From positions 128,001 to 192,000 of the forward strand of contig CAWFAD010000012.1 of NCBI GenBank assembly GCA_963813815.1: 64,000 bases of DNA. The letters are read 5' to 3'. The notes below the pieces were generated by a model. That model saw only the letters and a list, made by a program, of their open reading frames with translations. It did not search any database and was not told the origin of the DNA. Each line of letters begins with the position of its first letter. Position 1 is the first letter of the stretch. Shown here piece by piece: positions 19,027 to 43,812 of the stretch. A program made the position numbers and the translations under genes. Source of the DNA: an uncultured bacterium (GTDB lineage Bacteria > Krumholzibacteriota > Krumholzibacteriia > Krumholzibacteriales > Krumholzibacteriaceae).

Positions 19027-19062
19027 AAAAGAAAAAGCGCTCGGCGCGAAGGCGCCGGCGCT
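19027..19062 (-). terminator. Intrinsic terminator ending the STAS/giant-protein operon
   Basis: AGCGCCGGCGC-CTTC-GCGCCGAGCGCT stem followed by TTTTCTTTT on the minus strand. Confidence 0.6.
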
Positions 19063-19096
19063 CATGATGCGATGCGATGAAGCGCGGAACGCGGAT

Positions 19097-19534
19097 CTAG
19101 CCGTTCTTCGTCCCGTGCGTGCTGCCGACCTTGGCGTCCGCCGGGCTCCCCGATTTATCGGAGCCGGCGTCGCCGGCGGCCTTGCCGAAGGCCTTGACCG
19201 CTTCCGCAACGGTGTCGAAGCTCTGGAGGATCGTCTGGAACTCGAGCAGCTCGAAAACCTCGTACACGTCGGCGACCATGGAAGCGAGCTTGAGATCGCC
19301 TCCGTTTTCACGGATCGATTTGATCTCGCTGATAAAGATGCCCCAGCCGGCCGACGATATGTAGTTCACGCCCGCGAGGTCGATGACGATGTTGAAGCGG
19401 TTCTTCTTGAGCAGTCTCTTGAGACTCTCCTCGAGCTCCGCCGACGTCGTGGTATCCACGAACCCCTGCACGGAAAGAACCGACACGTCCGGGTTTTCCT
19501 CGGGCTTCGAGAACGATACGTTGATCCCTTCCAT
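19097..19534 (-). CDS. STAS-domain anti-sigma factor antagonist
   Basis: GFVDTTT...IDLAGVNYISSAGWG...GGDLKL...VFELLEF. Confidence 0.9.
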   Translation of the reverse strand: MEGINVSFSKPEENPDVSVLSVQGFVDTTTSAELEESLKRLLKKNRFNIVIDLAGVNYISSAGWGIFISEIKSIRENGGDLKLASMVADVYEVFELLEFQTILQSFDTVAEAVKAFGKAAGDAGSDKSGSPADAKVGSTHGTKNG

Positions 19535-19559
19535 GGCAACCTCGCTCCTTCTTCCAGCG

Positions 19560-19928
19560 CTATGATGCTTTCGTGTTTTGAGACGCCGCGAACGCGGCGA
19601 TTGCTTCCTCGCGCGTTCCGTAGGGCCGAAGCAGCGTGCTGAACTCGAGGAGCTCGAAAACCTCTCTCACGTCCGGATGCATGGCCGTGAGCTTGATGTC
19701 TCCCCCCCGCTGGCGTATCCCCTTGATCTCGCCCACGAAAATCCCCCAGCCCGCGGAGCTGATGTAATTCACCTCGCTGAGATCGGCGACAATGCGAACG
19801 GTGTTCGACGCGACGAGCTCGTTGAACGTATCCTCGAGAAACTGCGCCGTGCCCGAATCGATGATGCCACCGAGCTTCAGGACGACGACGTTCTCCACGT
19901 ACTCTTCGCTAATAACGAGCTTGTCCAT
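19560..19928 (-). CDS. STAS-domain anti-sigma factor antagonist
   Basis: GIIDSGT...DLSEVNYISSAGWG...GGDIKL...VFELLEF. GAGAGG RBS before ATG 19928. Confidence 0.9.
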   Translation of the reverse strand: MDKLVISEEYVENVVVLKLGGIIDSGTAQFLEDTFNELVASNTVRIVADLSEVNYISSAGWGIFVGEIKGIRQRGGDIKLTAMHPDVREVFELLEFSTLLRPYGTREEAIAAFAASQNTKAS

Positions 19929-19973
19929 TATCTGGCCAGTCCTCTCCTCTGCCCCACCCTGAATTAGCAAACT

Positions 19974-21092
19974 TCAGTCCAATAATGCCTTTAAAAGGAT
20001 AAATATTCCCTGCTTGTCGTTCTCGGACAACCGCAGGTTTTTCTGCGCCTTCTGGTAATTCCCGTTGATTTCGAGCGCCTTTTGAAAGGCCTTGTTGGCC
20101 CTGTCCATGAATATCTTGCATTTTGCGGTATAGAGGATGCCGAGGCTGTTGTGCCCGTCGGCGAAGGTCGGGTTCTGGTCGACGATCTGGCGCACGCTCT
20201 CGAGATGCCCCTCGATATCCTCCTCGCGTAGATTTTCGCCGTCGTACAGAAGCATCAGGTAGAGGTCGAGCACGATGTCCTCGATCCCGCCCCGCTCGGA
20301 GCGGCCACCGGCGCTCTCGAGGGCCTCGTACGCGAGCTCGTACTCCTTGCCCCGAAACAGGCTTCTCGCCTCCTCGACGCGGTTGGAGGCGAGGTACGGA
20401 TCGAGCTGCACGGCCCGGTCGAGATTGCCGAGAAACGCCGTATCGAGATCGCGCGCGAGCTCGTAATCCTCCTTGATGATCGTGTTGAGGAGAAAGGCAC
20501 GTGCGAGGTTGAGGTAGGGCTCGCCGTAGTAGAGATTGAGCCCGATGGCCCGGTTGAAGCAATCAATCGCGGCGCGGCATCGGCGCTGTTTGAGGTGTAT
20601 CACGCCGAGCAGGTTGTGCAGATCGGGGTACTCGGGATTGATCGCGAGGCCGTTTTCCACGGCCTTTATGGCCGCGTCGAATTTTCCGGCCTCGAAGCTG
20701 CACGAACCGATGATCAAATGAGGAAGGGAATCCTTGTTTCCCTTTTCGATCGCATGCCGCGCCTCCTGGATCGCCTCGTCCAAGAGATGGCGCCTCGCGA
20801 GCGCCTGCGCCACGCGCAGATGCGGCTTCGGATCGTCGCTCTGGCGCACGCGGTCGGTCACGCCGAGCAGAATGAGGAAGCGCCGCTTGTTCTCGAGATG
20901 CGCCTCCTTCGTGGCCCGGCGCAGGGCTTCCGCGGGCGCCTTGCCGTCGATGGCGACGTCCGTCGTATCGAAGGGAACGCCGTTCCTGAAGAACGAGCTC
21001 TGAATGATCCCCTTTTGAGGAAGCATGCTCGTCTGCAGAAAATACTTCCGCCCGGCGTGATCGATTTCCTCTCTCAGCTCGAACCCCGTCAC
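19974..21092 (-). CDS. Tetratricopeptide repeat protein
   Basis: TPR motifs NPEYPDLHNLLG, NPTFADGHNSLG and ALEINGNYQKA. Confidence 0.85.
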   Translation of the reverse strand: MTGFELREEIDHAGRKYFLQTSMLPQKGIIQSSFFRNGVPFDTTDVAIDGKAPAEALRRATKEAHLENKRRFLILLGVTDRVRQSDDPKPHLRVAQALARRHLLDEAIQEARHAIEKGNKDSLPHLIIGSCSFEAGKFDAAIKAVENGLAINPEYPDLHNLLGVIHLKQRRCRAAIDCFNRAIGLNLYYGEPYLNLARAFLLNTIIKEDYELARDLDTAFLGNLDRAVQLDPYLASNRVEEARSLFRGKEYELAYEALESAGGRSERGGIEDIVLDLYLMLLYDGENLREEDIEGHLESVRQIVDQNPTFADGHNSLGILYTAKCKIFMDRANKAFQKALEINGNYQKAQKNLRLSENDKQGIFILLKALLD

Positions 21093-21150
21093 CGGATCTC
21101 CTTCCGTGCCGCCCGGATCATGCTAGCACGGTCCGTGCGCCCGCGCCAGC

Positions 21151-21927
21151 TTACCCTTCCCTCTCCCCGCCGGCGCAGCGTGCGCCGGCGCGATCGAGGC
21201 CGAGGATCTCCTCGGTGAGATGGTAATAATCGAACGCTCCGCGCGAAAGCGGCGCGTGTTCGAATATCGTCTTCTGCCGCCCCGGGGCCTCCCGGATCGC
21301 CTGATTCGCCCTGATGACCGTTTTGAGGAGCCGGCCTCCGAAGCGCTCGCGAAGGCTCTCGAGCATGCTGTGCGCGAGCCGGGTGCGCGAATCGTAGAAC
21401 GTCGGCAGCAGCCGAATCGCAATCGGTCCGCGGCCGTTCCACGCCTGGATTTCCTCGACGATCTCGGCCGTCTGCACCGCGCCCGCCTCCGCCAGATAAT
21501 CCATCGAGACGGGGATGATCACCTCGTCGCAATAGGCCAGCGCGTTGATGTTGATGAGGTTCAACGACGGCGAGCAATCGCAGATCACGTAATCGCACCC
21601 CTTGAGCTGTTTCAGCGACTCGGAGAGGCGCTGCTCGCGGTTGACGCGCGAGCCGAGCGTGAGCTCGACCTCCGCGAGGCGCCGGCCGCCCGAATCGATG
21701 AAGAAGAGATTGTCGCGCACCTGGAGAATCTCGACTTCTCCCGAGGTCAGAAGGTCCGCCAGCCCGCGCTCCCCGCGGACGCCGAGGCTGAGGGCCACGC
21801 TCCGCTGCGGATCGCAATCGATGAGGAGCACCCGCTTCCCCGTGAGCGAGAGACCGTGCGACAGGCACAGCGCGGTCGTCGTCTTGCCGGTTCCGCCCTT
21901 CATGGTCATCACAGCGTACTTTTTCAT
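21151..21927 (-). CDS. ParA/Soj-family ATPase (orphan)
   Basis: Deviant Walker A KGGTGKTT, LIDCDPQ, DCSPS and EAP motifs. Confidence 0.9.
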   Translation of the reverse strand: MKKYAVMTMKGGTGKTTTALCLSHGLSLTGKRVLLIDCDPQRSVALSLGVRGERGLADLLTSGEVEILQVRDNLFFIDSGGRRLAEVELTLGSRVNREQRLSESLKQLKGCDYVICDCSPSLNLININALAYCDEVIIPVSMDYLAEAGAVQTAEIVEEIQAWNGRGPIAIRLLPTFYDSRTRLAHSMLESLRERFGGRLLKTVIRANQAIREAPGRQKTIFEHAPLSRGAFDYYHLTEEILGLDRAGARCAGGEREG

Positions 21928-21949
21928 GCCGCAGCCCAAACGCGCCCTT

Positions 21950-24900
21950 CTACTTCTTGCCCCGCGGCTTGCGATCCGAGTTGCGCAGCCGTTTGCCGTA
22001 TTCGTCCCAGCCTATCCGCGTGATGCGCTTGTCTTTGTCTTCGCGGACGTCCGTTCGCTTCTTGAAATCGATGAAAATCACTTTCTCCGGATCCGCGACC
22101 CGCTCGAGCGGTTCGAGCGGAGCGATCTTCGAGGCGCCCAGAAGCGCGTCCGCGAGATCCTGCTTCCGGTCCTCGGGCTCGGGGGCGGGCGCTCCCGCGG
22201 GCGCTCCGGGACCGGGCGCCGCCTCGGGCGGCGCGAAATCCGCGGCGCCTTTCGCCGGCGCCAGCTCCGCGAGCGCCATTTCGAGCGTTCCGTAATGCGG
22301 AATGAGCGGCTCGAAACCGAGATCGCGGAATATATTGAGAATGCTCGAGCTCATGCCGGCGATGGCGATGCGCCCGCCGGTTTCGCCGAGCTTCTGAAGA
22401 TACCTGATGATGATGCCCCATCCCCCGCTCGATATGTACACCATGCGTTCGACGTCCAGAATGAGATTGAGCGGCCGCTCATCCGCGCGCCGCGAGAGCT
22501 CCGCCTCGAACGCTTCGGCCGTCGAGGAATCGACGGCGCCGTCGATCGTCACCACGACGGTCCCTCCGACCGCGCGGGCGTCGCCTGCGGAAGCGATCGC
22601 GAGCGGCGTCCCGGCGCCCTCGGTCCGCTCCGCGCGGGGAGCCGCGGCGGCCTCGTCCGGAGGCTCCTCGTCGAGGATCTCCCCATCCGCGAGCGTCGGC
22701 GCCTCGTTCTTGAAATCCTCTATCGCCTCGGCCAGAACGCCGAAGGAGCGCATGATCGAGTCGAACCCGAGCAAGCTATAGATGCCGTCGACTTCCTGAT
22801 CCATGCCGAAGATCTTGAGATCGCCGCCCCGCAGTCTGATGTCCTTGATGCGCGAGGCGAACACTCCCCAGCCGCTCGAGCTCACGTACTCGACGCGCGA
22901 CATATCGATGACGATCTTCACCGCGCCGCGGTCGACGAGCCCGTCCAGAACGGAGCGGAGGTTCACGCAGCTCACCGTGTCCACGACCCCGTCGAGGTAC
23001 AACACGGTGATTTCCCCCTGATCTCCGACCGTCCCCGCCTCGATCTTGAGGGCGGCCCACGACGAATCCGTCTCCGGGACCTCTCCGGGCCCCGACGCGC
23101 CGGAAGCCGCCGTGGACTGGCGCGTTTCGAGCGTTCTGAGCGGGGCCGGGCGGGCCGATTCCCTCTCGAGTCGGCTCCGCCGCTCCGCGAGCGGGAGCGA
23201 GATATAAGCCGCCGCTTCATCGACCGTCGCGAACTGGAGGATGATCTCCTGGAAGCCGAGGAGCTCGTAGATGTCGTACACCTCCGGCGACATGCTGGCG
23301 AGCACCACGTCCCCCTCTCCCTCGCGAAGCGATTTGACCCGCCCCGTGAAGATTCCCCAACCGCCGCTCGATATGTACATCACCCCGGCGAGATCGACGA
23401 TGATCTTGCGGTATCCGTACTCGTGCACGCTTTCGAGAATTCCCTCGAGCTCTCCCGCCGACGAGGAATCGAGGTGGCCGGCCACGTGCAGCACCACCAC
23501 GTCCCCCGCGAGCTCCTCCGATGTGACCTCGATCGCCCGTCCTTGGCCGGTCCCGAACGACTCGCGGGCGCCCCGCCGGCGCAGCGGCGGCGCGCTCTCG
23601 CGACGGAGGGACGGCGCCGCAGCGGCCGGACGAGCTTCGGGAACGCTCGCCGGCGCCGCTTCCTCCGGGGCGGCTTCCGCGGGGGCCTGCGGCGCCCCGG
23701 CTGCCTCGGCGGCCGCCTCGGCCGGACGGCCGTGCGCGGCGACGAGCTTCTTGAACTCCTCGTCGGAAATGAACCGGTTGCGGCGCAGATACTCGAGCCG
23801 CATTTCGTAGGTGTTGAGCCGGATGCGCTTGAGCTCGTCGTAAACGATGGCGGGCGAGAGCAGGTCGCCCTCCGCCTTTCCCTCGTTGAACGCCGCGGTG
23901 ATCTTCTTCGCGCCGTAGCGGGGATGGTCGCGAATGATCCCGAGAAGCCCCTTCCGCTGCTCGATGCTCACGCGCCGGATATCGACCTCGCGTCGCAGCG
24001 TCTTGTCCTGCAGCCCCCGCTCCCCGAGCTCCTCGAGGCGCTTCTTGTATCGATAGTAGGTCGACGGCGACACCCGCATCATCCGGCAGGCCTCGGCGAC
24101 CGCCACCCCCTGCACCTCGACGAGATCGAGGAGCTTCCGCCGGATGCCGTAGAGCACCTCGTCCGCCTGGAGCTTCTCCTTGATTGCGACCACGGTGATG
24201 TCGTCGTTCTGCGGCTGATCGCCGGTAAAGCTCTTGATGTCGTCGTTGAGGCGATCGATGAACTCCTGCGGGGCGAGACGTCCGCACTGCTTGATGAGCC
24301 TGATGAGACGCTCCTCGCCGTATTGGTTGCGAGCGCCGTTCATCGCCTCCGTCACGCCGTCCGTATAGATGACGAGCATGTCGTCCTTCTTGAGCTTGAT
24401 CTTCTCGACGTCGATCGAGCGGCGGAAGAGCGTGTCGTCGGGCAGCTTGATGCCGACCGGAAATCCTCGCGGGTTGAGAAAATACGTCTCGTCCGTCTCG
24501 GCGCGGTAGAGGATCATCGGATTGTGGCCGGCCGAGGCGTAGCTGATGATGCGGTTTTTCGAATCGAGGATCGAGTAGAAGATCGTAACGAACATGCCTT
24601 TTTTCATGTCTTCCGTCACGAAATCGTTCATGCGCGCCATGACCTCGGCGGCCGAGTGGTTGCCCCGCGCCTCCATGCGCAGAGCCGTCCGGATCATCGT
24701 CATAACGAGCGAGCCGGGCACTCCCTTGCCGGAAACGTCCGCGACGACCACCCCGAGCGTGTCGTCGTCGACCCGCACGAAGTCGTAGTAATCGCCGCCG
24801 ACCTCCTTGGCGGCCCGGTAGAGGCTCGCGATGTCGTAGCCGCCGATCGTGGGGACGCGCTTCGGGAGCAGCGTCTGCTGGATTTCCTGCGCGACCTGCA

Positions 24901-26182
24901 TCTCCTTGTGGAGCCGCTCCTGCTCGACGACGTTCTTCTGGGCCTCGCGGAACTTCGACGTTATCTCGTTGAAGGCCCGGGCGATCTCGCCGATTTCCTG
25001 CGGCCCCGTGATTTGGATCTCGTCGCTGAGCGAGCCCTCGCCGATGGCGCGCACGCCGTCGGTGAGCGCCTGGATCGGGCGGACGAAAATGGCCACGAGC
25101 AGGTAGCTGAGCGCCACCCCGGCGGCGAATACGCCGACGAGTATGAGCGTCATCATGGGCCGCGGGTCGATGATATCGCCCGTCGCGATCGCCTCGGAGA
25201 TGCCCACGACGACGCGTCCGATCTCGGAGGTCTGCCCCCGCTCGGAATCGGTCAGGTAAACGGCCTGATGAAACTCGCGAATGAGACCGAGGCTGTCGTG
25301 GGCCACCGTCCGGTACGCGGCGCCGCGATCGAGCGAGCGCACCTCGGCGGGAATCGCGTACGTCGTGAGAAACTCGTCCTGCTGGTTCGAAGCGAAGATG
25401 CGCCCGTCGGCGTGCACGACGCGGATATACTTCACCTCGGGATACCGCTTTATCTGCCGCGGAATCGCATCCGTGCTGAGCTCGAGCCCGCTCACGTCGT
25501 AGGGATCCTTCGTGAGCGCGCCGACGCTCAGGCTCGCGATGGTTTCGGCGACCCGCTTGCGCTGCAGCCAGGTGTCGGCGAATCGGTCGCGCAGCTCGTT
25601 CGTCTGACGGTAGAGGAGAATCGCCCAGAGGAACACGACGAGGCCGAAGAGGCCGAGCGTCGTGCGCAACGCGAACTTGAATCGGAGCGTCGAGGTCCAC
25701 TTCGGCCGCCTGATCGAGCCGAAGAGCTGCGGCCGCGCGGCGGCCGCGGCCGAGTTTTTTACCATGTAGAGGCGATTCCCCGTCGGCGAAGCCGAATAGC
25801 TCAAATTGTCCATGAGGCGGTTCATCAGGTAGATGCCGAGACCGCCCTTCTTGCCGATTTCGACATAATGGTCGAGGTCGGGCTCCTTGACCTTGGACCA
25901 GTCGAAGGGCTCGCCGCGGTCGAAGATGCTGATCTCGACCGTGCCCGGACCCGCCTGAACGTCGATCCGGATGTCTCCGGCTTTCTCTTTGTACGCGTGT
26001 TTGATGATGTTCGTGCATGCTTCATCGACGGCGAGCTTCGTGTTGTTCGTTTCGCCCTTCGAGAATCCCGCGCGATCGCAGATGCCGGCGATGAAATCCC
26101 GGACCTCGCTCAGGTTGTTCTCGTCCGCGGGAACCTCGAGATGGAACGTCTCGCGCTCCCGCATGCGCTCGCCGCGTTTCAC
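21950..26182 (-). CDS. Hybrid partner-switching protein: RsbW-like Ser kinase, TM, periplasmic domain, TM/HAMP, SpoIIE PP2C phosphatase, HTH, 3x STAS
   Basis: Kinase AVDEACTNIIKHAY/DRGEPFD/GGLGIYL; two hydrophobic helices; HAMP EIGEIARAFN; PP2C VGGDYYD/ADVSGKG/YTDGVTEA/DDIT; three YxSSxGWG STAS motifs. Confidence 0.9.
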   Translation of the reverse strand: MKRGERMRERETFHLEVPADENNLSEVRDFIAGICDRAGFSKGETNNTKLAVDEACTNIIKHAYKEKAGDIRIDVQAGPGTVEISIFDRGEPFDWSKVKEPDLDHYVEIGKKGGLGIYLMNRLMDNLSYSASPTGNRLYMVKNSAAAAARPQLFGSIRRPKWTSTLRFKFALRTTLGLFGLVVFLWAILLYRQTNELRDRFADTWLQRKRVAETIASLSVGALTKDPYDVSGLELSTDAIPRQIKRYPEVKYIRVVHADGRIFASNQQDEFLTTYAIPAEVRSLDRGAAYRTVAHDSLGLIREFHQAVYLTDSERGQTSEIGRVVVGISEAIATGDIIDPRPMMTLILVGVFAAGVALSYLLVAIFVRPIQALTDGVRAIGEGSLSDEIQITGPQEIGEIARAFNEITSKFREAQKNVVEQERLHKEMQVAQEIQQTLLPKRVPTIGGYDIASLYRAAKEVGGDYYDFVRVDDDTLGVVVADVSGKGVPGSLVMTMIRTALRMEARGNHSAAEVMARMNDFVTEDMKKGMFVTIFYSILDSKNRIISYASAGHNPMILYRAETDETYFLNPRGFPVGIKLPDDTLFRRSIDVEKIKLKKDDMLVIYTDGVTEAMNGARNQYGEERLIRLIKQCGRLAPQEFIDRLNDDIKSFTGDQPQNDDITVVAIKEKLQADEVLYGIRRKLLDLVEVQGVAVAEACRMMRVSPSTYYRYKKRLEELGERGLQDKTLRREVDIRRVSIEQRKGLLGIIRDHPRYGAKKITAAFNEGKAEGDLLSPAIVYDELKRIRLNTYEMRLEYLRRNRFISDEEFKKLVAAHGRPAEAAAEAAGAPQAPAEAAPEEAAPASVPEARPAAAAPSLRRESAPPLRRRGARESFGTGQGRAIEVTSEELAGDVVVLHVAGHLDSSSAGELEGILESVHEYGYRKIIVDLAGVMYISSGGWGIFTGRVKSLREGEGDVVLASMSPEVYDIYELLGFQEIILQFATVDEAAAYISLPLAERRSRLERESARPAPLRTLETRQSTAASGASGPGEVPETDSSWAALKIEAGTVGDQGEITVLYLDGVVDTVSCVNLRSVLDGLVDRGAVKIVIDMSRVEYVSSSGWGVFASRIKDIRLRGGDLKIFGMDQEVDGIYSLLGFDSIMRSFGVLAEAIEDFKNEAPTLADGEILDEEPPDEAAAAPRAERTEGAGTPLAIASAGDARAVGGTVVVTIDGAVDSSTAEAFEAELSRRADERPLNLILDVERMVYISSGGWGIIIRYLQKLGETGGRIAIAGMSSSILNIFRDLGFEPLIPHYGTLEMALAELAPAKGAADFAPPEAAPGPGAPAGAPAPEPEDRKQDLADALLGASKIAPLEPLERVADPEKVIFIDFKKRTDVREDKDKRITRIGWDEYGKRLRNSDRKPRGKK

Positions 26183-28089
26183 CGCGCACCCCCCGCTCCG
26201 CCGCTGTTCTGAAGGCGCTTGCGGGCCTCCCCGATGTTCCTCAGCACGCTCTCGTTATCGGGATCGATTTCGAGAATCCGCTGCCACCGCTCGACGGCCT
26301 TCAGGTAATTCCCGTCCGTGAAATGCTTCATTCCCTCGAGATAGAGAGCGCGCACCTCCGCCTTTTCGCCGTCGCTGAGCGGGGTCATGCGCCGCTCGGC
26401 GCGCAGCAGCAGGGTTCGCGCCTCCGCGTGCTTCGGATCGATGGAGAGCAGCTCCCTGATCTGTTTCACGGCGTCCGGATACCGCCCCTCCCCGAACGAC
26501 CTCACGGCGCCGTCGTAGAGCTCCGCGACCCGGAGCCGCTTGGCCGTCGTGAGATAATCCCGGCTCATCTCGTCGACTCGCTCGTTCAGCCGCTCCACGG
26601 CTGCGAGCGCCTCGGCGGATTCGGGCACGATCGTCCGGACCATATTCCACTCGCCGAGTGCGGCTGCGAGCTGTCCCTGCCGCTCGAGATCGAGGGCCCG
26701 CTCGCGGTGCTGCGCCGCGAGGCCATCGAGCTTCTCCTCGGTCGCTCCGAGATACTCCGCCGCCTGCCCGTTCTCCGGATCGATCTCGAGGACACTCCGC
26801 CATTCCGCGCGGGCGCGGATATAATCTCCCGTGCCGTAGTATTCGAGTCCGAGACGGAAGTGACGGTTCGTGAGGGCCGCTTTTTCGGCGTCCTTCGTCC
26901 GCTGCTCTTCCGCTGCGAGAACGTCGCGCTCGACCACGCTGATGGTGTCGGCGACGGCCCGGCTCGTCGGATCGTACTCGAGGGCGATTCTGAGCTCGTC
27001 GAGCGCCTTCGCCGGCTGCCCATCGCGCCGGAACTGCTCGGCGGAGGCAATGTGGCCGGCGATCCTCCTCGTGAGCATCTGCTGGATGCGACGTTCTTCG
27101 TCGGCGAGGCGCCGCTCCTCGCGCAGCCGTATACGGTCGTCGATCGAGGATCCGATCCGGGCGGAGAGCGAGAGCGGATGCGCGCTTCCGGCCTCCTCGC
27201 GGCTCAGATAGCCGTAATCGAATCCGAAGCCGTGCCAGCCGACGCCGACCCCCGCCGTGATGCTTTGCCCGTCGTATCCGGCGCGGATCGCGAGAAAGTC
27301 CCGGAACCGGTACTCGGCCCCGGCCCGCACCTTCGTGTCGCCGCGCGCGGGAAGATCCATCTGCGCCGCCAGCACGAGCGCGGAGCTCTTTCCCAGCGCG
27401 CGGGCGTAGCCGGCGCCGATCATCACGGTGCGGTCCACGGGCTCGCTCACCGAGACGAGCTTGATCTCCGCGCCGACGATATCCTGAAGGTTGCACCCGA
27501 CGCGGAGGCCCTCCAACCAGCGCGGCTGGTACACGAATCCGACGTCGAGCCCCGTGCCGGTATCCGAGAAATCTCCGACGCGCTGGCTCAGCATCTTCGC
27601 CGACGAGCCGACGGTGACCGCGCCGGCGTAACGCCACGGCAGCGTGTACGCGTAGGCGACGATCATCTGACTCTCGCGGTAGCTGAGCTCGCCCGTTTCA
27701 CGGCTCCACTCGTCGAACCCGCGGATGCCCCCCGTCCCCGCCGTCATGAAGCCCGCGCCGAGGGCGCCGGCGGAGATCGTCGGATACACGAAACCGAGAA
27801 AGTCGTATCCCGTGTCGCTCCATCCGGAAAAGAGCTGCGCGTGGCTCGCGAGCACCGCGGTGTACCGGTTGAGCGCGAGGGCGGCCGGGTTGTAGAACAA
27901 CGCCGACGCGTCGTCGCCCACGGCGGAGAAGGCTCCCCCCATGGCGATCGCCCGCGCCCCCGCCCCGACGGCAAAGATCGAGCTCGTGCCGCCCGTTCCC
28001 TCCTGCGCCGCGACGCTCGACACGAGCATCGCCGAGAGCAGGACGGCGGTCAACGCCGCATACCGATGGTTCGTTCGCATACCCATCAC
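26179..28089 (-). CDS. PorV/PorQ-like beta-barrel fused to C-terminal TPR array
   Basis: Signal peptide, GAGARAIAMGGAFSAVGDDASALFYNPAAL, GAEY...LAIRAGY...FDYGY, then TPRs (LEIDPEN, LSIDPKH, LEIDPDN). Confidence 0.85.
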   Translation of the reverse strand: MMGMRTNHRYAALTAVLLSAMLVSSVAAQEGTGGTSSIFAVGAGARAIAMGGAFSAVGDDASALFYNPAALALNRYTAVLASHAQLFSGWSDTGYDFLGFVYPTISAGALGAGFMTAGTGGIRGFDEWSRETGELSYRESQMIVAYAYTLPWRYAGAVTVGSSAKMLSQRVGDFSDTGTGLDVGFVYQPRWLEGLRVGCNLQDIVGAEIKLVSVSEPVDRTVMIGAGYARALGKSSALVLAAQMDLPARGDTKVRAGAEYRFRDFLAIRAGYDGQSITAGVGVGWHGFGFDYGYLSREEAGSAHPLSLSARIGSSIDDRIRLREERRLADEERRIQQMLTRRIAGHIASAEQFRRDGQPAKALDELRIALEYDPTSRAVADTISVVERDVLAAEEQRTKDAEKAALTNRHFRLGLEYYGTGDYIRARAEWRSVLEIDPENGQAAEYLGATEEKLDGLAAQHRERALDLERQGQLAAALGEWNMVRTIVPESAEALAAVERLNERVDEMSRDYLTTAKRLRVAELYDGAVRSFGEGRYPDAVKQIRELLSIDPKHAEARTLLLRAERRMTPLSDGEKAEVRALYLEGMKHFTDGNYLKAVERWQRILEIDPDNESVLRNIGEARKRLQNSGGAGGAR

Positions 28090-37000: not shown

Positions 37001-40000
37001 CGAAGGAGAAGGTGATGCCCGCCTGCGACGTCGCCCCGGCGAGAACGGTCGCCCGCAGATCGGTCGCCCCGCTCGAAACGGACGAATAGACGGCGTCGAC
37101 GACGCTGGCGGAAGATACGGTGTTCGTGTAAGCGTCGATGGCGTCTTGCGCCCCGGCCGAGGCGGGGGCATGATACGTGACCGAAACGGTGCCGGTGCTA
37201 TCGCTCGTGCCGCGGCGCATCGACAGAGTGAGCTCTTCCGTCGTGCTGCCGGCCGCTGCGCTCAGATAGCCGTCGGCGGGAGTGTCCTTGATGTAGATCG
37301 TGACGTTTTCGTTGAAAACGAGGTTGTTGAAACCGTCCCGGAGCGTGGCCGTTACGGTCGTTTCCGTGTTCACCGTCACCGGCTTGCTCGCGGGGGCGAG
37401 CGCGACGGAGGCGACAGGTCCGTGATCGGTCGTCGCCGTGAAGACCGCTTCGCGAACGGTCCCGGTGGAAATCGCCGCCGTCGCTTCGTTCGTGTTGAGA
37501 CCGGCGACCGTTCCGAGCCGCCAGTATTCGCAGGATGCCGTTCCCGCGCCGCCCGTGACCGCCGTGGTCTGCACGCCCGCGAGCGCGACGCTCGCGTCGA
37601 TCGCGCCGCCCCCCGCCGTGGCGGCGAAGGCCACCGTGACGCCGGGCACCCGGTTTCCGAATGCATCCTCGACCGCGACGACGAGCTGCAGCGGCACCGG
37701 CGTATTGACGACCGCCCGCTGTCCGTCTCCGCTCACGGCGTAGACTCTATCCGCGCCCGCCGGAGAAACGGCGAGCGCCGTGGCGGACGCCGACGACACG
37801 CCGCCACTCGCCGCGGCGATCGTGATCGACTCCGCCAGGCGGTCCGTGATGAGGAGCTCCGCGTCCCCGCCGTCGATCGAGACGAACTGATAGGTCACGG
37901 TATCGCCGGCTTCGGACACGATGAAGCCCGCGGCGTTTCCGAGCCCCCACGTCGCCTCGTCGGCGGCCGCGGCCCTCACCGGATATACTTTGACCGTTCC
38001 GGCGAACGAGGTGAGCTTGTTGTTGTTGGCGTCCCGGGCGTCGATCGACACCGCCGCGGGAACCCCGGCCGTAGCCGTCCCGCCGTGCGTGACGATAAAG
38101 TGGTGGAGCGCTCCCGCCGTAAACGCCACGGGTACGACGTCATCGAGGAGAGCGCCTCCCGCGCGCGCCCGGATGCTCTTTATCTCCGCCACGGTCGACC
38201 GGACGCTCCCGGCCGCCCGGCCGTCCGCGCCCGTCACGACCGAGGGCTGAGCAATAGTGTTGCCGCTTCCCGTGCATTCGAGGGTCACGAGAACGCCGGG
38301 GATCGGATTCGAATCGGCGTCGCGCACGTACACGGTCACGATCACGGCATCCGCGCCGTCGGCGATGATCGCCGTTTTGTCGACCTGGATCTCGGAAACT
38401 ACCGGGTCGAAGGGGCCCGGCACAAAGCTCACGGCGGCTCCCGCCGTGACGAGCGCACCGTCCACGCGAGCCCGAATCGTTTTCGTCTCGGCGACGGTCG
38501 ATTTCACGCCGCCCCTCGCAAGGCCGTCCGGGCCCGTGAGCCCGACCGGCTGCCGTATGTCGTTCCCGCTCCCCGTGCACTCGAGCGCCACGACGCTCCC
38601 CGAGATCGGGTTCCCTTCCCCATCCCGAACAGTCACCGTCACGAGCACGGAATCGGCGCCGTCGGCCGTGATCGTCGTCTTGCTCACATCGAGGTCGGAT
38701 ACGTCAGGAGAGAAAGGCCCCGCCGCGAACGTGACAGGAATGCTCTCCGCCAAATAAACCGCGTCAACGAGCGCGCGTATCGTCTTACCCTCGGCCGCGG
38801 TCGATTTCACGCTTCCAACGGCCCGGCCCAGTACGTCGGTGAGGCTCCCCGGCTGCCGGATCGAGTTCTCCGTTCCCGTGCACACGATCGTCACGGCCTT
38901 GCCCGAGATCGGGTTCCCCTGCCCGTCCCGGACAGTCACCGTCACAACGATCGAGTCCACCCCGTCCGCCGTCGCCGTCGTCTTGCTCACCGCAATGTCC
39001 GACACCGACGGATCAAACGGTCCCGTCACGAACGAGACGGGAATGCTCTCCACCAGGTAAACCGCGTCAACGAGCGCGCTGATCGTCTTCCCCTCGGCCG
39101 CGGTCGATTTCACGCTTCCAACGGCCCGGCCCAGTGCGTCGGTGAGGCTCCCCGGCTGCCGGATCGAGTTCTCCGTTCCCGTGCACTCGAGCGCCACAAC
39201 GCTCCCCGAGATCGGGTTCCCCTGCCCGTCACGAACAGTCACCGTCACAACGATCGAGTCCACCCCGTCCGCCGTCGCCGTCGTCTTGCTCACCGCAATG
39301 TCCGACACCGACGGATCAAACGGACCCGTCACAAAGCTCACCGCCACGAGCTCCGTCAGATATATCCCGTTCGCTCGAGCGCGTATCGTCTTGCCCTCCG
39401 CCACCGTCGACGCCACGCTCCCCACCGCCACCCCACTCGCGTTCGTCACCGCACCCGGCTGCCGTACGTCGTTCCCGCTCCCCGTGCACTCGAGCGCCAC
39501 AACGCTCCCCGAGATCGGGTTCCCCTGCCCGTCACGAACAGTCACCGTCACAACGATCGAGTCCACCCCGTCCGCCGTCGCCGTCGTCTTGCTCACCGCA
39601 ATGTCCGACACCGACGGATCAAACGGACCCGTCACAAAGCTCACCACCACCTGCTCCGTCAGATATATCCCGTTCGCTCGAGCACGTATCGTCTTGCCCT
39701 CCGCCACCGTCGACGCCACGCTCCCCACCGCCACCCCACTCGCGTTCGTCACCGCACCCGGCTGCCGTACGTCGTTCCCGCTCCCCGTGCACTCGAGCGC
39801 CACGACGCTCCCCGAGATCGGGTTCCCCTCCCCGTCTCGAACAGTCACCGTCACAACGATCGAGTCCACCCCGTCAGCCGTCGCCGTCGTCTTGCTCACC
39901 GCAATGTCCGACACCGACGGATCAAACGGACCCGTCACAAAGCTCACCGCCACGAGCTCCGTCAGATATATCCCGTTCGCTCGAGCGCGTATCGTCTTGC

Positions 40001-42950
40001 CCTCCGCCACCGTCGACGCCACGCTCCCCACCGCCACCCCACTCGCGTTCGTCACCGCACCCGGCTGCCGTACGTCGTTCCCGCTCCCCGTGCACTCGAG
40101 CGCCACGACGCTCCCCGAGATCGGGTTCCCCTGCCCGTCTCGAACAGTCACCGTCACAACGATCGAGTCCACCCCGTCAGCCGTCGCCGTCGTCTTGCTC
40201 ACCGCAATGTCCGACACCGACGGATCAAACGGACCCGTCACAAAGCTCACCGCCACCTGCTCCGTCAGATATATCCCGTTCGCTCGAGCGCGTATCGTCT
40301 TGCCCTCCGCCACCGTCGACGCCACGCTCCCCACCGCCACCCCACTCGCGTTCGTCACCGCACCCGGCTGCCGTACGTCGTTCCCGCTCCCCGTGCACTC
40401 GAGCGCCACGACGCTCCCCGAGATCGGGTTCCCCTGCCCGTCCCGAACAGTCACCGTCACAACGATCGAGTCCACCCCGTCCGCCGTCGCCGTCGTCTTG
40501 CTCACCGCAATGTCCGACACCGACGGATCAAACGGACCCGTCACAAAGCTCACCGCCACGAGCTCCGTCAGATATATCCCGTTCGCTCGAGCGCGTATCG
40601 TCTTGCCCTCCGCCACCGTCGACGCCACGCTCCCCACCGCCACCCCACTCGCGTTCGTCACCGCACCCGGCTGCCGTATGTCGTTCCCGCTCCCCGTGCA
40701 CTCGAGCGCCACGACGCTCCCCGAGATCGGGTTCCCCTGCCCGTCTCGAACAGTCACCGTCACAACGATCGAGTCCACCCCGTCAGCCGTCGCCGTCGTC
40801 TTGCTCACCGCAATGTCCGACACCGACGGATCAAACGGACCCGTCATAAAGCTCACCGCCACCTGCTCCGTCAGATATATCCCGTTCGCTCGAGCGCGTA
40901 TCGTCTTGCCCTCCGCCACCGTCGACGCCACGCTCCCCACCGCCACCCCACTCGCGTTCGTCACCGCACCCGGCTGCCGTATGTCGTTCCCGCTCCCCGT
41001 GCACTCGAGCGCCACGACGCTCCCCGAGATCGGGTTCCCCTCCCCGTCCCGAACAGTCACCGTCACAACGATCGAGTCCACCCCGTCCGCCGTCGCCGTC
41101 GTCTTGCTCACCGCGATGTCCGACACCGACGGATCAAACGGACCCGTCACAAAGCTCACCGCCACGAGCTCCGTCAGATATATCCCGTTCGCTCGAGCGC
41201 GTATCGTCTTGCCCTCCGCCACCGTCGACGCCACGCTCCCCACCGCCACCCCACTCGCGTTCGTCACCGCACCCGGCTGCCGTATGTCGTTCCCGCTCCC
41301 CGTGCACTCGAGCGCCACGACGCTCCCCGAGATCGGGTTCCCCTCCCCATCCCGAACAGTCACCGTCACAACGATCGAGTCCACCCCGTCCGCCGTCGCC
41401 GTCGTCTTGCTCACCGCGATGTCCGACACCGACGGATCAAACGGACCCGCCACGAAGACCGCCTCGAGGTCATGGGCGACGTATATACCTCCGCTCGAGG
41501 CAGTGACCGTCTTGCTCTCGGCCACGAGCGAGCGAATCGAGCCGCTCGCGAGACCGTTCACGTCCGTCGCTGCGGCGGGCTGGATGATCGTGTTGCCGCT
41601 TCCCGTCGCCTCGAATGCGACGGTCGCCCCCTCGATGCCGTTCGAAAACTCGTCGAGGATATGCGCGGCGAGCGGAACGGAATCGACCCCGTCCGCGACG
41701 GCGCTCGGGTCGCTCGAGACGATATCCGAAACTACCGGATCGTATGGGGCGTGATCGATGTAGATCGCGGCGGAGGCGGCCTCGAGCGTCGGAAAGACCC
41801 CGTCCTGATCGAGCAGGCCGAGGATGTAGGGAATGACGAGCTCCTTCAGGGTGTTGCGATAGTCGAGAGAGATGGAATACGAGCCGCTCGGAATAACGAT
41901 CTGCGCGATCGGAGTCGAGTGATCGCCCGTCGTGTAAAAGCTCCCCGGCTGGCCGAAAAGCGAGATGGTCTGGCTGCTCGAAACAGGGCTCGGGTTGCCG
42001 AAGGCGTCCTCCACGAGCAGCCGGTACCTCACGTAGTCGCCCGCGACGGCGAGCGTATCCGCCGGCGCAACGAGGAGACGGAATGGCGTGCCGGGCAGGA
42101 CGGTGATGCTCTGCTGCGGGTCGGCCCAATCCTGCCCCACTGCCGATGCCGTGATGGTCTTGACGCCCGCGACCGTATCGCGATAGTAGAAAGAGACGGT
42201 ATCGGTTCCAACCGCAATCGTCACCGTATCGGTATCCGAAAAGCCCGCGCCCCCGAGATGCGAGAATCGTCCGGTAGGGGCGCTCGACGAAAGATACACG
42301 TCCAGATCCGCGGAAACGGGCGTTGAGTTCCCAAAGGCATCCACGGAGGAGAGACGAATCACGCTGCTTTCCGAGTCAGCCGGAAAGACGCGCGGCGGAG
42401 TGACGAACGCGATCCCCGCGGTCGGGCCGCCCACGACGACATCGAGGGTCGGCGACGATGCGATGGGCACCCGAGGGCCCGGAGTGTTGGGATCTGAGCG
42501 CACCAGGAAAGGGACGTTGCTCTCGGGATAGGTCTGCGCCCTCGCCGCGCCGCCCGGATTCACTGAAACGTCGCCGTATATGACCGCCACCGTCTGCCCC
42601 AAGCCGAGGGTCGTAATGTTGACGATAATGCTTTGCCCCGAGATCGTGATAGCCGGCGTTCCGAGAGTCCCGGCCGTCGAAGCCCTCACGTAGCCAGCCA
42701 CCAATGAGCTCAATATTTGCGGCGGACTCCATCCATCGGGAATAACGACCTCGATCGAGCCGACGGAGAATGTCTCCGCGCTCGTGTAAGTAATGGTCCA
42801 CGTGCCATACGTGCCGACTATGACATCCGCCGACGGGCTGATGACGGCCGTGCCCGATCCCTCGGCGGCCCGAGCGCCAGGCCCGGCGAGCGCCGAGAGG
42901 ACGAGCAACGCAATGAGCAGCGGAATGATTCTGGGGAATTGTTTTTTCAT
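28086..42950 (-). CDS. Giant (~4954 aa) secreted Ig-like (Big_1/invasin-type) repeat surface protein with C-terminal FlgD-Ig/T9SS-like domain
   Basis: Uninterrupted ORF; signal peptide MKKQFPRIIPLLIALLVLSALAGPGARA; TADG...VTVRDxxGNP Big_1 repeats; C-terminal HNYPNPF...IYDLAG...WDGRNARGETVRNGVY. Confidence 0.9.
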   Translation of the reverse strand: MKKQFPRIIPLLIALLVLSALAGPGARAAEGSGTAVISPSADVIVGTYGTWTITYTSAETFSVGSIEVVIPDGWSPPQILSSLVAGYVRASTAGTLGTPAITISGQSIIVNITTLGLGQTVAVIYGDVSVNPGGAARAQTYPESNVPFLVRSDPNTPGPRVPIASSPTLDVVVGGPTAGIAFVTPPRVFPADSESSVIRLSSVDAFGNSTPVSADLDVYLSSSAPTGRFSHLGGAGFSDTDTVTIAVGTDTVSFYYRDTVAGVKTITASAVGQDWADPQQSITVLPGTPFRLLVAPADTLAVAGDYVRYRLLVEDAFGNPSPVSSSQTISLFGQPGSFYTTGDHSTPIAQIVIPSGSYSISLDYRNTLKELVIPYILGLLDQDGVFPTLEAASAAIYIDHAPYDPVVSDIVSSDPSAVADGVDSVPLAAHILDEFSNGIEGATVAFEATGSGNTIIQPAAATDVNGLASGSIRSLVAESKTVTASSGGIYVAHDLEAVFVAGPFDPSVSDIAVSKTTATADGVDSIVVTVTVRDGEGNPISGSVVALECTGSGNDIRQPGAVTNASGVAVGSVASTVAEGKTIRARANGIYLTELVAVSFVTGPFDPSVSDIAVSKTTATADGVDSIVVTVTVRDGEGNPISGSVVALECTGSGNDIRQPGAVTNASGVAVGSVASTVAEGKTIRARANGIYLTEQVAVSFMTGPFDPSVSDIAVSKTTATADGVDSIVVTVTVRDGQGNPISGSVVALECTGSGNDIRQPGAVTNASGVAVGSVASTVAEGKTIRARANGIYLTELVAVSFVTGPFDPSVSDIAVSKTTATADGVDSIVVTVTVRDGQGNPISGSVVALECTGSGNDVRQPGAVTNASGVAVGSVASTVAEGKTIRARANGIYLTEQVAVSFVTGPFDPSVSDIAVSKTTATADGVDSIVVTVTVRDGQGNPISGSVVALECTGSGNDVRQPGAVTNASGVAVGSVASTVAEGKTIRARANGIYLTELVAVSFVTGPFDPSVSDIAVSKTTATADGVDSIVVTVTVRDGEGNPISGSVVALECTGSGNDVRQPGAVTNASGVAVGSVASTVAEGKTIRARANGIYLTEQVVVSFVTGPFDPSVSDIAVSKTTATADGVDSIVVTVTVRDGQGNPISGSVVALECTGSGNDVRQPGAVTNASGVAVGSVASTVAEGKTIRARANGIYLTELVAVSFVTGPFDPSVSDIAVSKTTATADGVDSIVVTVTVRDGQGNPISGSVVALECTGTENSIRQPGSLTDALGRAVGSVKSTAAEGKTISALVDAVYLVESIPVSFVTGPFDPSVSDIAVSKTTATADGVDSIVVTVTVRDGQGNPISGKAVTIVCTGTENSIRQPGSLTDVLGRAVGSVKSTAAEGKTIRALVDAVYLAESIPVTFAAGPFSPDVSDLDVSKTTITADGADSVLVTVTVRDGEGNPISGSVVALECTGSGNDIRQPVGLTGPDGLARGGVKSTVAETKTIRARVDGALVTAGAAVSFVPGPFDPVVSEIQVDKTAIIADGADAVIVTVYVRDADSNPIPGVLVTLECTGSGNTIAQPSVVTGADGRAAGSVRSTVAEIKSIRARAGGALLDDVVPVAFTAGALHHFIVTHGGTATAGVPAAVSIDARDANNNKLTSFAGTVKVYPVRAAAADEATWGLGNAAGFIVSEAGDTVTYQFVSIDGGDAELLITDRLAESITIAAASGGVSSASATALAVSPAGADRVYAVSGDGQRAVVNTPVPLQLVVAVEDAFGNRVPGVTVAFAATAGGGAIDASVALAGVQTTAVTGGAGTASCEYWRLGTVAGLNTNEATAAISTGTVREAVFTATTDHGPVASVALAPASKPVTVNTETTVTATLRDGFNNLVFNENVTIYIKDTPADGYLSAAAGSTTEELTLSMRRGTSDSTGTVSVTYHAPASAGAQDAIDAYTNTVSSASVVDAVYSSVSSGATDLRATVLAGATSQAGITFSFVVEAVDGNGNRDLANSSRILLQASVDGGFSFSLSDFGATITEADLASGAVIIYGRGTRAGSWQIDALDEAAVLAPAQIPILIVANDVVSSYVVTAPAAAVAGAEFAVTAEARDLYGNRVASAGYTVDFRAVEASDSTQTASSALSPASGTLVNGLFAGANFRYTVAEPIRVEVSSVSNAVKGYSGAVSVGNAAAYQLVKIGGDSSGVAVGDSVRLAARVLDAYGNTVDGHSVFFTVQEGGGAISSPLAVSDAAGVARAWFRTDTLCGTNRARAAILDASPEGLETQGFTVTTVPRSAIDRVALSLPGTSFTAGEMFTCEVAAYDVYGNLIDTDSSTGLRAVAERASIDFTPDVMTLLAGVSSFTAFDSTAGANRIAVLSLAGDTLAPWSAEIAIEPAAAYRVVEVNGDTSGVIAGASVDLRARVTDRYGNAAPDEIVRFQVTSDLGGSPVLWDGTGAANDGLVLTDAGGAALCALTTDANAGVNSVSASILDASPPLLEQVVFDVGTIAGTIARFDVIPDGFAKKAGESFAVEIIAYDGYGNEAFDDDTTRVLLASDGSATFAVNPVTLSAGRATASARDTVAELLVLRARTLAGGATSYSGTITVSPEAPSGAIGIATVIPDTITANGTSTSAISTGAIRDVYGNVVAPGTLVRVTASAGTVISEDKDPSTPLTVERQTEASGAVSVFVRSATSPAVSTVEFQSVTGSAVGSVAVVFAPAPVCLYAGYLAPRHLLPTEPAQFRCSTSNTSPTGTYLSTATTISFADSLGHVYEAHLAAPAFLRGSATDTLDFQTVVVPAGLLGGTYTPRVALAGNDIYGFSYRGEFSAGSNSVSVSDVDILQVVSEKAIVSRGDTFTVDVRVRNGGGSTVSVIDITLKFANGFYGMAGDWNPPLPDDLAPGAERLYRHDIFALGYSPLGFDTIDASITAQANGSQVQDQTAYPNVSVIFVQAAASLSYVASTLDPDTVSRGQTHSFSLSVRNAGDAALILDPSETRLSFTDGADAVSVPLGYAGAIPGNTATALVFPPVSVPTAMDAGSWPVAVRLRGTENGGFFDTTLVLSDEMRVVDPAAVSYVIGTLAPAVVSKQSDVSFGVGVANSGGASVLCDPDSTWFTFTDGSLTYAASLDATRGRTIDPGVATLYFRAAVVPSDMAVGSYPPSLAIGGSENGLRFASIFALADSVGVQEPSQLAITSTTVLPAPMVTADQATPWFASVQVRNNGGATVRLESFSMRLLAGPVDVTGECILAPLDFTPNVDSLLGGETRAILVRLDDNPSGAMTTGTIVIESALAGRDLNSGASLLATTEYGGKGSYLVQTPASLVFAAVTASTDTVTALQTKDWFCDVAVRNAGQSDLGLDLDPAASFIAFSTSGDFIVVPPVELAGGGVVLEGGSTDTLRWRIDRSGSVAGPCVVESTVRGTELTSGRIISLASGDQGISGDVLVQTPAALAISRITPLQNPVTVSQDRAWSVEMEVRNTGQSDAALELGRIDSTRVVIPGGSGFVIDNPLALVEGGTVLRGGAAGRLVFTVSTTGMISPGTLALAGSVLAVETTSDRHVFASRAAPEDTVTFELPPDPSYVTGSLAPLAASSGTSVSFEAAIAADAGLRSTLTLDRSATTLSFGDADGDTVRTSLSDVSPNVLPSASQQTLLFDAALVDVALSLGRHAAFIRLVGEENGNPFSTVLPLSPDSVLVEQAPQLGISGIVTPQSVTRSQTEPWNVWMKLRNSGEASVSLDLAAAKTFLTFTIVGVGDRTYEYTVVRPAALSGIGGAILPGGAVDSLLFTVTSTGSTPGIALVNGTVTGTDVNSNLTVSDDTYSGGFSHVMVELPGDPAVVSSAPSRATVTSAQTTPWQIACEVCNAGEADLTLIPDSARVYRDEGLPLAHARPPAFVEGGLDLPGGECRHLVFSVSPTPEIPAGADIELHADVELVENNNGVHRSYDTRLDGSGSGSIRVQAQARLAVALAATAAPRAPYVDSGQQFVVVAEVANGGEARVENVGVALEGSGSSAIADTLVFIDAIAGFASASDTFLVTADGEGSEIFTARIRSAVDANSGESDYVLFDAAVDDTALAVIQRPAALVVTAVTPSQEAVNAGQTIEWTIDVGVRNDGEAPLEIDAAASDDLAFSIDGVSVGGYLVIAPETFVSGASPLVLEGGAADTLLYRIAATGRDTGSVDIAATLGWIDGNEPEAPRPPASGSGSVLVRPPSGLRIVAVTSDAPNNASFANTSIVNTGQTFNLTVRVENTGGDDLDSVLVRLATSGVSGTLVEGDSLAYMPSRTERDFVYAVTAAPSSAVEYLRASIVKAVSVNTGEPVTPAEAVESIENLRIETAALLACGASITSPAGAIDDTLSTGQIFVVTVLVENAGEAAIDTTGRVTLALPVSMSLADPADPLTRRFDAGAPLEWTLVAPAAPSLDTLRASISSVPNDINIGSPAAIQTAESRIVARTEEAGGIAECSVSVAAPAGAVDGVLSTDQEFVARVALVPSVNADSVWAELSAPAGYAVAGDMIKFVGAGAGELVTLDWTVRAPSIAAPVDTLVGRAGGVDANSGERLPVRRVVFAVRAVEKAALALAGRISGPDGALDGILSVNQSFTIEATAANAGEAGVDTAGARIELVLPSGQNYDLDGAGETYRKPFYPGEPVAWNVRAPAEPTSPGNLQIRFVEPLAEDVNTNLACAVTTGEVFLPVQTETGAVRMLNLSSLDTIPPVVVPQGAAGVPIMRAEFENTSGYTIGLDTLYVAIKDGTGRLVSPPSRRVSGVALVAGGVRFEAAVSEANPVPIVAGHAFEVVPGAADTLLLTADIAANAPAGEIRFEIEESADVVFSITLEGGGAGSRVGVVDDQGGDIAGSFLSGPLTVLSARFEDYVHNYPNPFAAGSQETRICYFLLEDAAVSIRIYDLAGILVWTKEIASGEEGGTGSADGIMHEIPWDGRNARGETVRNGVYLCKVEAGSQSALFKIAVAK
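38115..41750 (-). repeat. Tandem array of about 12 x 303-bp (101-aa) Big_1 units; 7 near-identical units at 39327-41447
   Basis: GGATCAAACGG recurs every 303 bp from ~39010 to ~41434. Protein unit GPFDPSVSDIAVSKTTATADGVDS...VSFVT. Confidence 0.95.
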
Positions 42951-43000
42951 CTTTCGAATCCGGCTCCCGGCCCTGTTTTCGCAGCTGATTCGGAAAATTC

Positions 43001-43016
43001 GCAAGGTGTGTGCCAA
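43001..43016 (-). promoter_or_regulatory. Sigma54 (-24/-12) promoter of the giant-protein operon
   Basis: TTGGCAC-ACACC-TTGC matches TGGCAC-N5-TTGC exactly, 50 nt upstream of ATG 42950. Confidence 0.75.
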
Positions 43017-43809: not shown

Positions 43810-43812
43810 GAT

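Follow-up and report, generated by a model that had tools for sequence, protein, structure and literature searches.

The locus considered here raises the question of whether a giant secreted protein can travel through evolution together with its own outer-membrane partner and with a device by which the cell would read the state of that protein. It lies in a window, namely the whole stretch of 64,000 nucleotides that was analysed, from an uncultured krumholzibacterial genome. Open reading frame and domain searches of this window recover seven co-oriented genes on the minus strand that span the interval from a sigma54 motif to a terminator-like hairpin (Table 1). A re-reading of the sequence bears out the original prediction as regards this layout: both signals are present where they were placed, and the products are identified by domain searches as a Big_1 giant, a PorV-TPR protein, a HATPase/SpoIIE/STAS hybrid, a ParA, a TPR protein and two STAS proteins. 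GTGA overlaps mark the junctions of the giant with the PorV-TPR gene and of the latter with the hybrid gene, an in-frame TGATG start being also possible at the first of these; the gaps that follow the hybrid measure, in gene order, 22, 58, 45 and 25 nt, matching the predicted range of ~22-58 nt.

Table 1. Features of the locus and its surroundings, in the direction of transcription (window coordinates)
Feature	Position	Strand	Remarks
Three CBM48/AMPK-type glycogen-binding-domain genes and one gene without Pfam match	43417-48445	-	Upstream of the giant
sigma70-type motif	43245-43273	-	TTGCGA, 17 nt, extended -10 TGC-TATTTT; ~260 nt upstream of the sigma54 site
Inverted repeat of ~10 nt	43022-43031 / 43125-43134		Upstream of the sigma54 site; unconserved in the alignment of relatives
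sigma54 -24/-12 motif	43001-43015	-	TGGCAC-N5-TTGC; 50 nt before the start codon of the giant; conserved
Giant secreted Ig-repeat protein	28086-42950	-	4954 aa; signal peptide, Big_1, T9SS-type CTD
PorV-TPR: PorV/PorQ-family beta-barrel with helical/TPR arm	26179-28089	-	NF033709, TPRs, predicted model
Hybrid inner-membrane sensor	21950-26182	-	1410 aa; RsbW-type kinase (HATPase_c_2) aa 11-144; TM; sCache-like 192-343; TM; HAMP; PP2C (SpoIIE) 420-670; HTH 672-805; 3 STAS; conserved C-terminal tail
Soj-like ParA ATPase without ParB	21151-21927	-	Lineage-specific accessory; Walker A; nearest solved relative Soj
Internal extended -10 motif	21120-21128	-	Ahead of the TPR gene; from comparison of relatives
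Cytoplasmic TPR protein	19974-21092	-	Accessory; in 12 of 20 ortholog-like loci
Stand-alone STAS protein 1	19560-19928	-	STAS domain
Stand-alone STAS protein 2	19097-19534	-	STAS domain
Intrinsic terminator-like hairpin with T-run	19027-19062	-	-22.5 kcal/mol
Extended -10 motif ahead of the VWA gene	19001-19009	-	Beyond the hairpin
VWA-domain membrane protein	16808-18964	-	Downstream neighbour; own extended -10; system membership uncertain
LTD-CTD protein	13737-15452	-	Beside the VWA gene; flanking LTD genes conserved

The giant starts from the ATG at 42950 behind the promoter (the longest open frame amounts to 5006 aa), has a signal-peptide-like N-terminus and carries 13 Big_1 stretches, with near-identical tandem repeats of 101 aa at about aa 400-1610. 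Orthologous giants of 2857-5918 aa in other genomes rule out an assembly artefact. The last ~112 aa score 27.7 bits with TIGR04183, for which the cut-off is 23, and the protein has no match to TIGR04131 (the type B CTD) at E 0.01. Further, a CTD subtype profile built from 19 module cargoes gives scores of 77-140 to 62 held-out CTDs encoded upstream of PorV-TPR genes and of at most 59 to 16 other CTDs; within this genome the giant reaches 139, a second CTD protein with an adjoining barrel 89, and the other 41 CTD proteins 64 or less. The second protein of this subtype (G000 C6:17108-21418) sits beside a PorV-family barrel of its own, which is without TPR arm or sensor. Altogether, PorV-family genes over or near the cut-off number seven in the genome and CTD proteins about 43, and SprA, PorU and RpoN are each matched over their cut-offs; GldM and GldN gave no match in it, the positive controls for them being likewise silent, and the T9SS here may possibly work without the known motor. 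With a T9SS-type CTD of the barrel-paired subtype and with SprA and PorU encoded in the same genome, the proposed role of the giant as a dedicated-export cargo finds support.

The protein encoded next is a member of the PorV/PorQ family (NF033709, 108.5 with a cut-off of 90) with added TPRs. It falls below the PorV equivalog model (38.2 vs 250 for NF033710) and is not of the PorP type (TIGR03519, 16 vs 90.55; E 0.006 with the PorP model). A barrel at aa 29-313 is followed by a helical/TPR arm of ~315 aa, and an AlphaFold2 model of mean pLDDT 85 places the end of the barrel at residue 311 and helices at 315-628. The best structural match of this model is 6h3i_F from the T9SS translocon (Z 31.4, rmsd 3.6, 278 aligned), which we take to be PorV, and the next are FadL-type and BAM-associated Bacteroidota barrels (Z 25-29). 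Searches of solved structures by sequence returned nothing meaningful for the barrel and, with the PorV-TPR profile, TPR proteins only. The barrel topology of PorV/FadL-like proteins is the basis for placing the C-terminal arm, which is thus predicted to be periplasmic.

The third gene encodes the sensor. Its catalytic and phospho-acceptor positions (N58, the G-boxes, D482, D608, D660 and the STAS serines) are invariant or nearly so across 93 sequences, and the kinase, PP2C and STAS families, which had been foreseen as partner-switch components of the RsbW, RsbU and RsbV kinds, all have their motifs intact. The five STAS domains of the locus, three fused to the sensor and two stand-alone, share 40-53% identity with one another as against 24-33% with the two other matched STAS proteins of the genome; a dedicated circuit fits this pattern of greater mutual proximity.

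Comparison across genomes defines which of the seven genes form the heart of the system. The same full order is seen in all 12 relatives fetched, which were picked for long contigs, with single genes frameshifted in three; CBM48 genes lie upstream in ten of the 11 in which that side is covered and the VWA gene downstream in all 12. Of 41 genomes (this one and 40 relatives), 33 have a match to the TPR gene, one of these being a weak generic TPR match, while 36 match the hybrid, 37 PorV-TPR and 32 the C-terminal part of the giant. At the level of the phylum, an alignment search with PorV-TPR matched 96 of 155 genomes; 40 of the 131 places listed were fetched, chosen by long contigs and spread and not by their neighbours. 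Directly downstream of the PorV-TPR gene, all 40 have a TM-Cache-HAMP sensor (34 with PP2C, six with HD-GYP) and, directly upstream, 38 have a CTD protein. The 20 ortholog-like loci uniformly have a kinase-Cache-HAMP-PP2C-HTH sensor directly downstream, and 18 have a CTD giant upstream, the other two being one at a contig edge and one without it. The 20 distant paralogue loci all have the CTD protein upstream and the TM-Cache-HAMP sensor downstream (14 PP2C, six HD-GYP), and RsbW/STAS and histidine kinase genes often come next at those of the PP2C type.

The reverse test gives a concordant picture. A Cache profile built from 62 sequences matched 117 of the 155 genomes, and 140 of the 150 matches listed (32 more lie beyond these) stand directly behind a PorV-TPR gene, 119 by a listed match and 21 on inspection; because the profile was trained on module members, which makes it partly circular, and the loci are kin, this count is not a statistical test. 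The other listed matches comprise four at contig edges, two behind an arm without a barrel and four without a barrel. At two further loci (L033 and L035), a weak barrel with a TPR arm precedes a Cache-HAMP-PP2C protein, a kinase and a histidine kinase, and upstream of this set no CTD protein was detected. Among 80 metagenome loci, ten have this sensor type, and each of these has PorV-TPR directly upstream, preceded in seven by a CTD protein, with ParA in one; the remaining 70 encode generic PP2C proteins without a barrel match, many on short contigs. Two of the metagenome loci, L054 and L058, have sensors with 92% identity to proteins that carry the labels Eisenbacteria and KSB1, respectively, and the sensor of L059 shares 64% with one labelled Calditrichaeota. 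Look-alikes in the atlas point to Zixiibacteriota, Calditrichota and Eisenbacteria, as leads only. The KSB1/Calditrichota-type sensors of L059 (9998-13873) and L060 (8661-12308) have a fused C-terminal TPR region whose similarity to the TPR protein of the window is generic (30-37 bits), and the STAS proteins of these loci are longer, with open frames of 228-252 aa.

Paralogous copies of the trio of giant, barrel and sensor occur at separate places, as many as four in one genome, and their neighbours differ. In one relative (G023), glmS lies upstream and the giant is shorter; here the upstream block has been replaced and the trio stays. Judged by these neighbourhoods, the conserved core is the giant, the PorV-TPR barrel and the TM-Cache-HAMP sensor, which is smaller than first proposed: ParA and the TPR protein are accessory, and the partner switch has at least one alternative as output. 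The loss of gene order among relatives, named beforehand as grounds for refuting the original prediction, was not observed, and the genes do form a conserved module.

The second output is an HD-GYP domain, which replaces PP2C in 11 full loci (L154, L161, L164-166, L169, L173, L183, L189, L192 and L195), five of them added by the reverse test; both the HD and the GYP motifs were matched in ten. The Cache domains of these sensors are 33-47% identical to those of the PP2C type, and in FastTree trees the six HD-GYP sensors placed form two groups that nest among PP2C-type sensors, all within a single family, with their barrels nesting likewise. As we read these trees, the output domain has been swapped while the barrel and the Cache domain stayed together. 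The distances among Cache domains track those of the barrel as well as those of the arm (Spearman 0.65 for each; the identity and distance comparisons exclude four rows that are frameshifted or short), and hence there is no signal of specific co-evolution with the arm.

At the locus of the window the output would be of a less usual kind. The model for SigB/F/G-type sigma factors (TIGR02980) is over its cut-off in none of the 41 genomes, with a B. subtilis control positive, and canonical SigB regulation is rejected on this account. The 13 sigma70-family matches of this genome read as RpoD, two RpoD-like proteins and ECF types; an ECF or another target of the kinase is possible. The sigma release that defines Rsb/SpoII switching is probably absent, and the failure to find a SigB/F/G factor makes the HTH of the hybrid itself a likely output. 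This region, which like the two sigma70-type motifs treated below goes beyond the original prediction, is IS481-like and bipartite, is kept throughout the ortholog clade as well as in the KSB1-type sensors, and is the best candidate for an output that likely acts on transcription. A complete IS481 transposase was rejected, since only the N-terminal 109 of the 284 profile positions match, and a sequence search of the region against solved structures gave nothing meaningful.

The place of ParA had been seen differently, as a core part that positions the giant. It is missing from seven of the 20 ortholog-like loci (present in 13) and is found in only one of ten metagenome loci, and it is thus better described as a lineage-specific extra. 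With a deviant Walker A motif, it belongs to the Soj branch (best solved relative Soj of T. thermophilus, E 3.6e-39), with one DNA-binding arginine position of Soj presumably replaced; it was rejected as the chromosomal ParA, two other ParA homologues being encoded in the genome. A pattern in the short C-terminal tail of the sensor is seen in 30 of 33 ParA-bearing loci vs none of 15 ParA-less ones, a comparison that represents few independent events and in which two of the exceptions are frameshifted and one is a variant by eye, three of the ParA-less loci are cut by contig ends and two loci (L051 and L148) are one genome. In another relative (G169), the fused STAS domains, the tail, ParA and the TPR protein are missing all together. 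Given the co-occurrence of ParA with the tail, the sensor is a likelier target of ParA than the adhesin. A gene for an RHH-like protein of ~90 aa follows parA directly in ten of ten loci of families f6 and f9 (L133:14760-15035, L020, L134-136, L138-140, L151 and L152); it was not found in this genome. Three of five tested scored E 0.01-0.09 with Pfam RHH_1, and a basic N-terminal motif together with an RHH-like C-terminus gives these proteins the look of type Ib partition partners.

The VWA gene is beside the block in 18 of the 20 ortholog-like loci, and also at the Eisenbacteria-like locus L054. It is thus kept more often than ParA, and some of the synteny therefore reflects no more than the usual gene order of the lineage. 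The upstream CBM48 cluster is kept across the order and in loci of families f5, f6 and f9, and is absent from this position in G023 and in family f8.

Transcription of the block by a single sigma54 promoter was a further part of the original prediction, and it survives in part. The sigma54 motif is the sole exact match in the window, where three matches at up to one mismatch are no more than expected by chance. In orthologous upstream regions, it scores at least 9/10 in 19 of 21 and is perfect in 12, as against 21 and none, respectively, of 1967 random windows of 500 nt. In addition to the rpoN gene, the genome encodes eight GAFTGA-type proteins (enhancer-binding), none within the block. Sigma70-type motifs stand both upstream of the block and inside it. 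The upstream one recurs 243-285 nt ahead of the sigma54 site in 12 of 13 same-order loci and 14 of 21 overall (shuffles 90/4200), and could instead be, or overlap, an activator or repressor site. The internal extended -10 recurs ahead of the TPR gene in this genome and 13 of 32 related loci (shuffles 395/6400) and is a probable sigma70 promoter for TPR-STAS-STAS; a sigma70 consensus scan of positions 16000-30000 found no site. In light of these motifs, one purely sigma54-driven transcript is unlikely. Of 12 relatives, five have a T-run hairpin at -11 kcal/mol or better behind the last STAS gene, and this signal is thus not uniformly kept.

A functional link among cargo, barrel and sensor is very likely on this comparative evidence, and we favour a mechanism in which signalling runs from the outside in. 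To elaborate, the giant would be exported through SprA and handed to its dedicated barrel, which would stay bound as an anchor in the manner of type B cargo with PorP/SprF; the CTD subtype in question is, as far as the sequences indicate, seen almost only directly upstream of such barrels. The arm of the barrel would contact the Cache domain, and whether the barrel has its cargo loaded, is under load or has lost the cargo would reach the output domain by way of the TM helix and HAMP. There, the balance between kinase and PP2C would set the phosphorylation of the five related STAS domains, and the HTH would act on transcription, possibly at the promoters of the giant; related loci have HD-GYP instead or adjoin a histidine kinase. 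ParA would be a lineage-specific addition, likely acting on the C-terminal tail of the sensor. The link across the envelope is drawn from the genes alone, from which we infer the physical contact of arm and sensor; to signalling by such contact we give a probability of roughly 0.5. A complex prediction in which the arm (aa 314-630) was paired to the Cache domain (aa 192-343) scored 0.30, with the mark at 0.32, and, its controls having failed to fold, counts neither way. More tentatively, and at slightly under even odds, we propose a kind of signalling at the cell surface that would be widespread among T9SS-bearing candidate phyla and as yet undescribed: a private barrel would be provided per giant cargo, and its arm would plug into a dedicated Cache-HAMP receptor, through which the cell would sense whether its surface protein is present or under load. 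The output would be interchangeable, being either a c-di-GMP phosphodiesterase or a sigma-independent STAS phospho-switch whose HTH derives from a transposase and is tethered to the membrane.

The same genes could also be co-regulated without any contact, which we consider less likely; the Cache domain itself offers an argument for this view. Its profile finds DcuS (E 3.7e-08) and CitA, both small-molecule sensors, as the nearest solved relatives, and hence a small molecule of the periplasm may bind there instead of the arm. The phospho-switch would then set the production or display of the giant, and the arm would have another job, such as that of a chaperone or in docking to SprA or the cell wall. 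Four orphan Cache sensors without a barrel upstream would suit such an arrangement, as would SypE/SypA and BtrU/V/W, for which the available text of the sources gives control of biofilm or of secretion and no sigma target that is known (PMC3610818, PMC8256260). However, the position of the sensor directly behind the barrel persists in the 140 of 150 listed matches across paralogues that differ in cargo length and output. Moreover, the Cache domain has one invariant column only across the 62 sequences, such that no conserved ligand pocket is evident, and the six arm-less PorV-family genes of this genome, taken as a control, have no Cache-HAMP sensor, the genome having a single Cache match.

The direction of signalling might also be reversed, with the cytoplasmic phospho-state setting the conformation of the Cache domain so that it grips or frees the arm and the giant is kept or released. 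The available account of the Lap system (PMC3032545) offers a parallel in LapD/LapA, where a periplasmic domain, HAMP and cytoplasmic signalling domains likewise accompany a giant adhesin, and the three STAS domains fused to the sensor could feed back on it. Yet LapD is a c-di-GMP receptor, whereas the PP2C, kinase and HD-GYP catalytic motifs are intact here, as for output enzymes, and no periplasmic protease gene is among the seven; control from the inside out is accordingly improbable in our estimation. Least probable of all, and by our reckoning close to dismissal, is that the genes merely share an inherited order with no functional tie between export and signalling. The conservation of CBM48 genes upstream and of VWA and LTD genes downstream, across the order and beyond, and the internal promoter motif that separates TPR-STAS-STAS are what such an order would produce. 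Against it, the trio recurs at separate paralogous loci amid other neighbours, survives the change of output, is translationally coupled here and stays in G023 where the upstream block does not. For the core trio this explanation is largely refuted; for ParA, the TPR protein and VWA it may hold.

Signalling from the barrel inwards, as favoured here, would set the module apart from the systems that it most resembles. In the T9SS, the type B SprB-SprF pair and PG1035-PorP-PorE likewise have a large adhesin gene followed by its own barrel as shuttle or anchor, the available portions of the literature describing type B cargo with the cognate shuttle directly downstream and PorE operons (PMC12618676) and PorP-type barrels as anchors (PMC9143113). 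In contrast, the CTD of the module is type A-like (TIGR04183), its barrel is of the PorV/PorQ kind with the arm fused, and the next gene encodes an inner-membrane signalling protein instead of a peptidoglycan-binding lipoprotein. We take PorE to contain TPRs and the barrel of its operon to be tied to a periplasmic TPR-type partner. To PorV, the type A shuttle, the barrel is joined by its family score and its best fold match, and it differs in its low equivalog score, in being one of seven family members, in its arm and in its pairing with one cargo.

On the signalling side, a counterpart is SypE/SypA of Vibrio fischeri. In the available text, a serine kinase at the N-terminus and a PP2C phosphatase are joined in a single polypeptide and act on a STAS protein; the locus is a surface/biofilm one, and no sigma target is known for it (PMC3610818; for STAS-only proteins and Btr, PMC8256260). 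The input of SypE is a central REC, whereas that of the module is TM-Cache-HAMP, with the HTH and three STAS domains fused. RsbU-RsbV-RsbW-SigB and SpoIIE-AA-AB-SigF use the same three domain families with intact motifs, and differ in the sigma factor for which the 41 genomes offer no counterpart. Similarly, in CapK/CapS an anti-sigma-like kinase phosphorylates a STAS-type transcription controller with no sigma factor; this pair is cytoplasmic, has single-stranded DNA as its activator and controls immune operons, and the available part of its description names no phosphatase, membrane sensor or secretion link (PMC13373217). The Lap system, from what its available account gives, shares a giant adhesin under envelope-spanning control, but ends in proteolysis and has no T9SS cargo or PorV barrel; no GGDEF/EAL or protease domain, as a LapD/LapG counterpart would have, was found among the seven proteins. 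SiaABCD, as partially described, is comparable in that a membrane PP2C controls biofilm, and again has no T9SS cargo or PorV barrel. In FecA-FecR-FecI, an outer-membrane barrel signals to an inner-membrane protein and the pathway ends in an ECF sigma; it lacks both a T9SS cargo and a PorV-family barrel. As for ParA, the deviant Walker A is shared with Soj/ParA and the type Ib ParA-RHH systems, and two other families have the RHH-like gene behind parA; the ParA of the module differs in having no ParB nearby and, in this genome, no RHH gene.

A literature search, in which most subscription papers lay outside the coverage, returned no description of the combination of a giant, PorV and SpoIIE/STAS, nor of type IX secretion in Krumholzibacteri. 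The parts of the module are all from known families, and the neighbourhood of giant, barrel and sensor likely marks a route, not described so far, by which a secreted surface protein signals to the cell interior. It points to T9SS-type export well outside the Bacteroidota, which may run there without the known motor, and to enzymes of partner switching that operate without the usual sigma factor. Though the organisms are uncultured, the small soluble parts (the TPR arm, the Cache domain, the STAS domains and the HTH) are open to study in vitro. Were the link physical, PorV-family barrels would be receptors, beyond their roles as shuttles and anchors, and the T9SS would have a built-in feedback from the secreted protein to the cytoplasm. 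If true, this would provide a testable mechanism by which a bacterium senses attachment through a giant adhesin.
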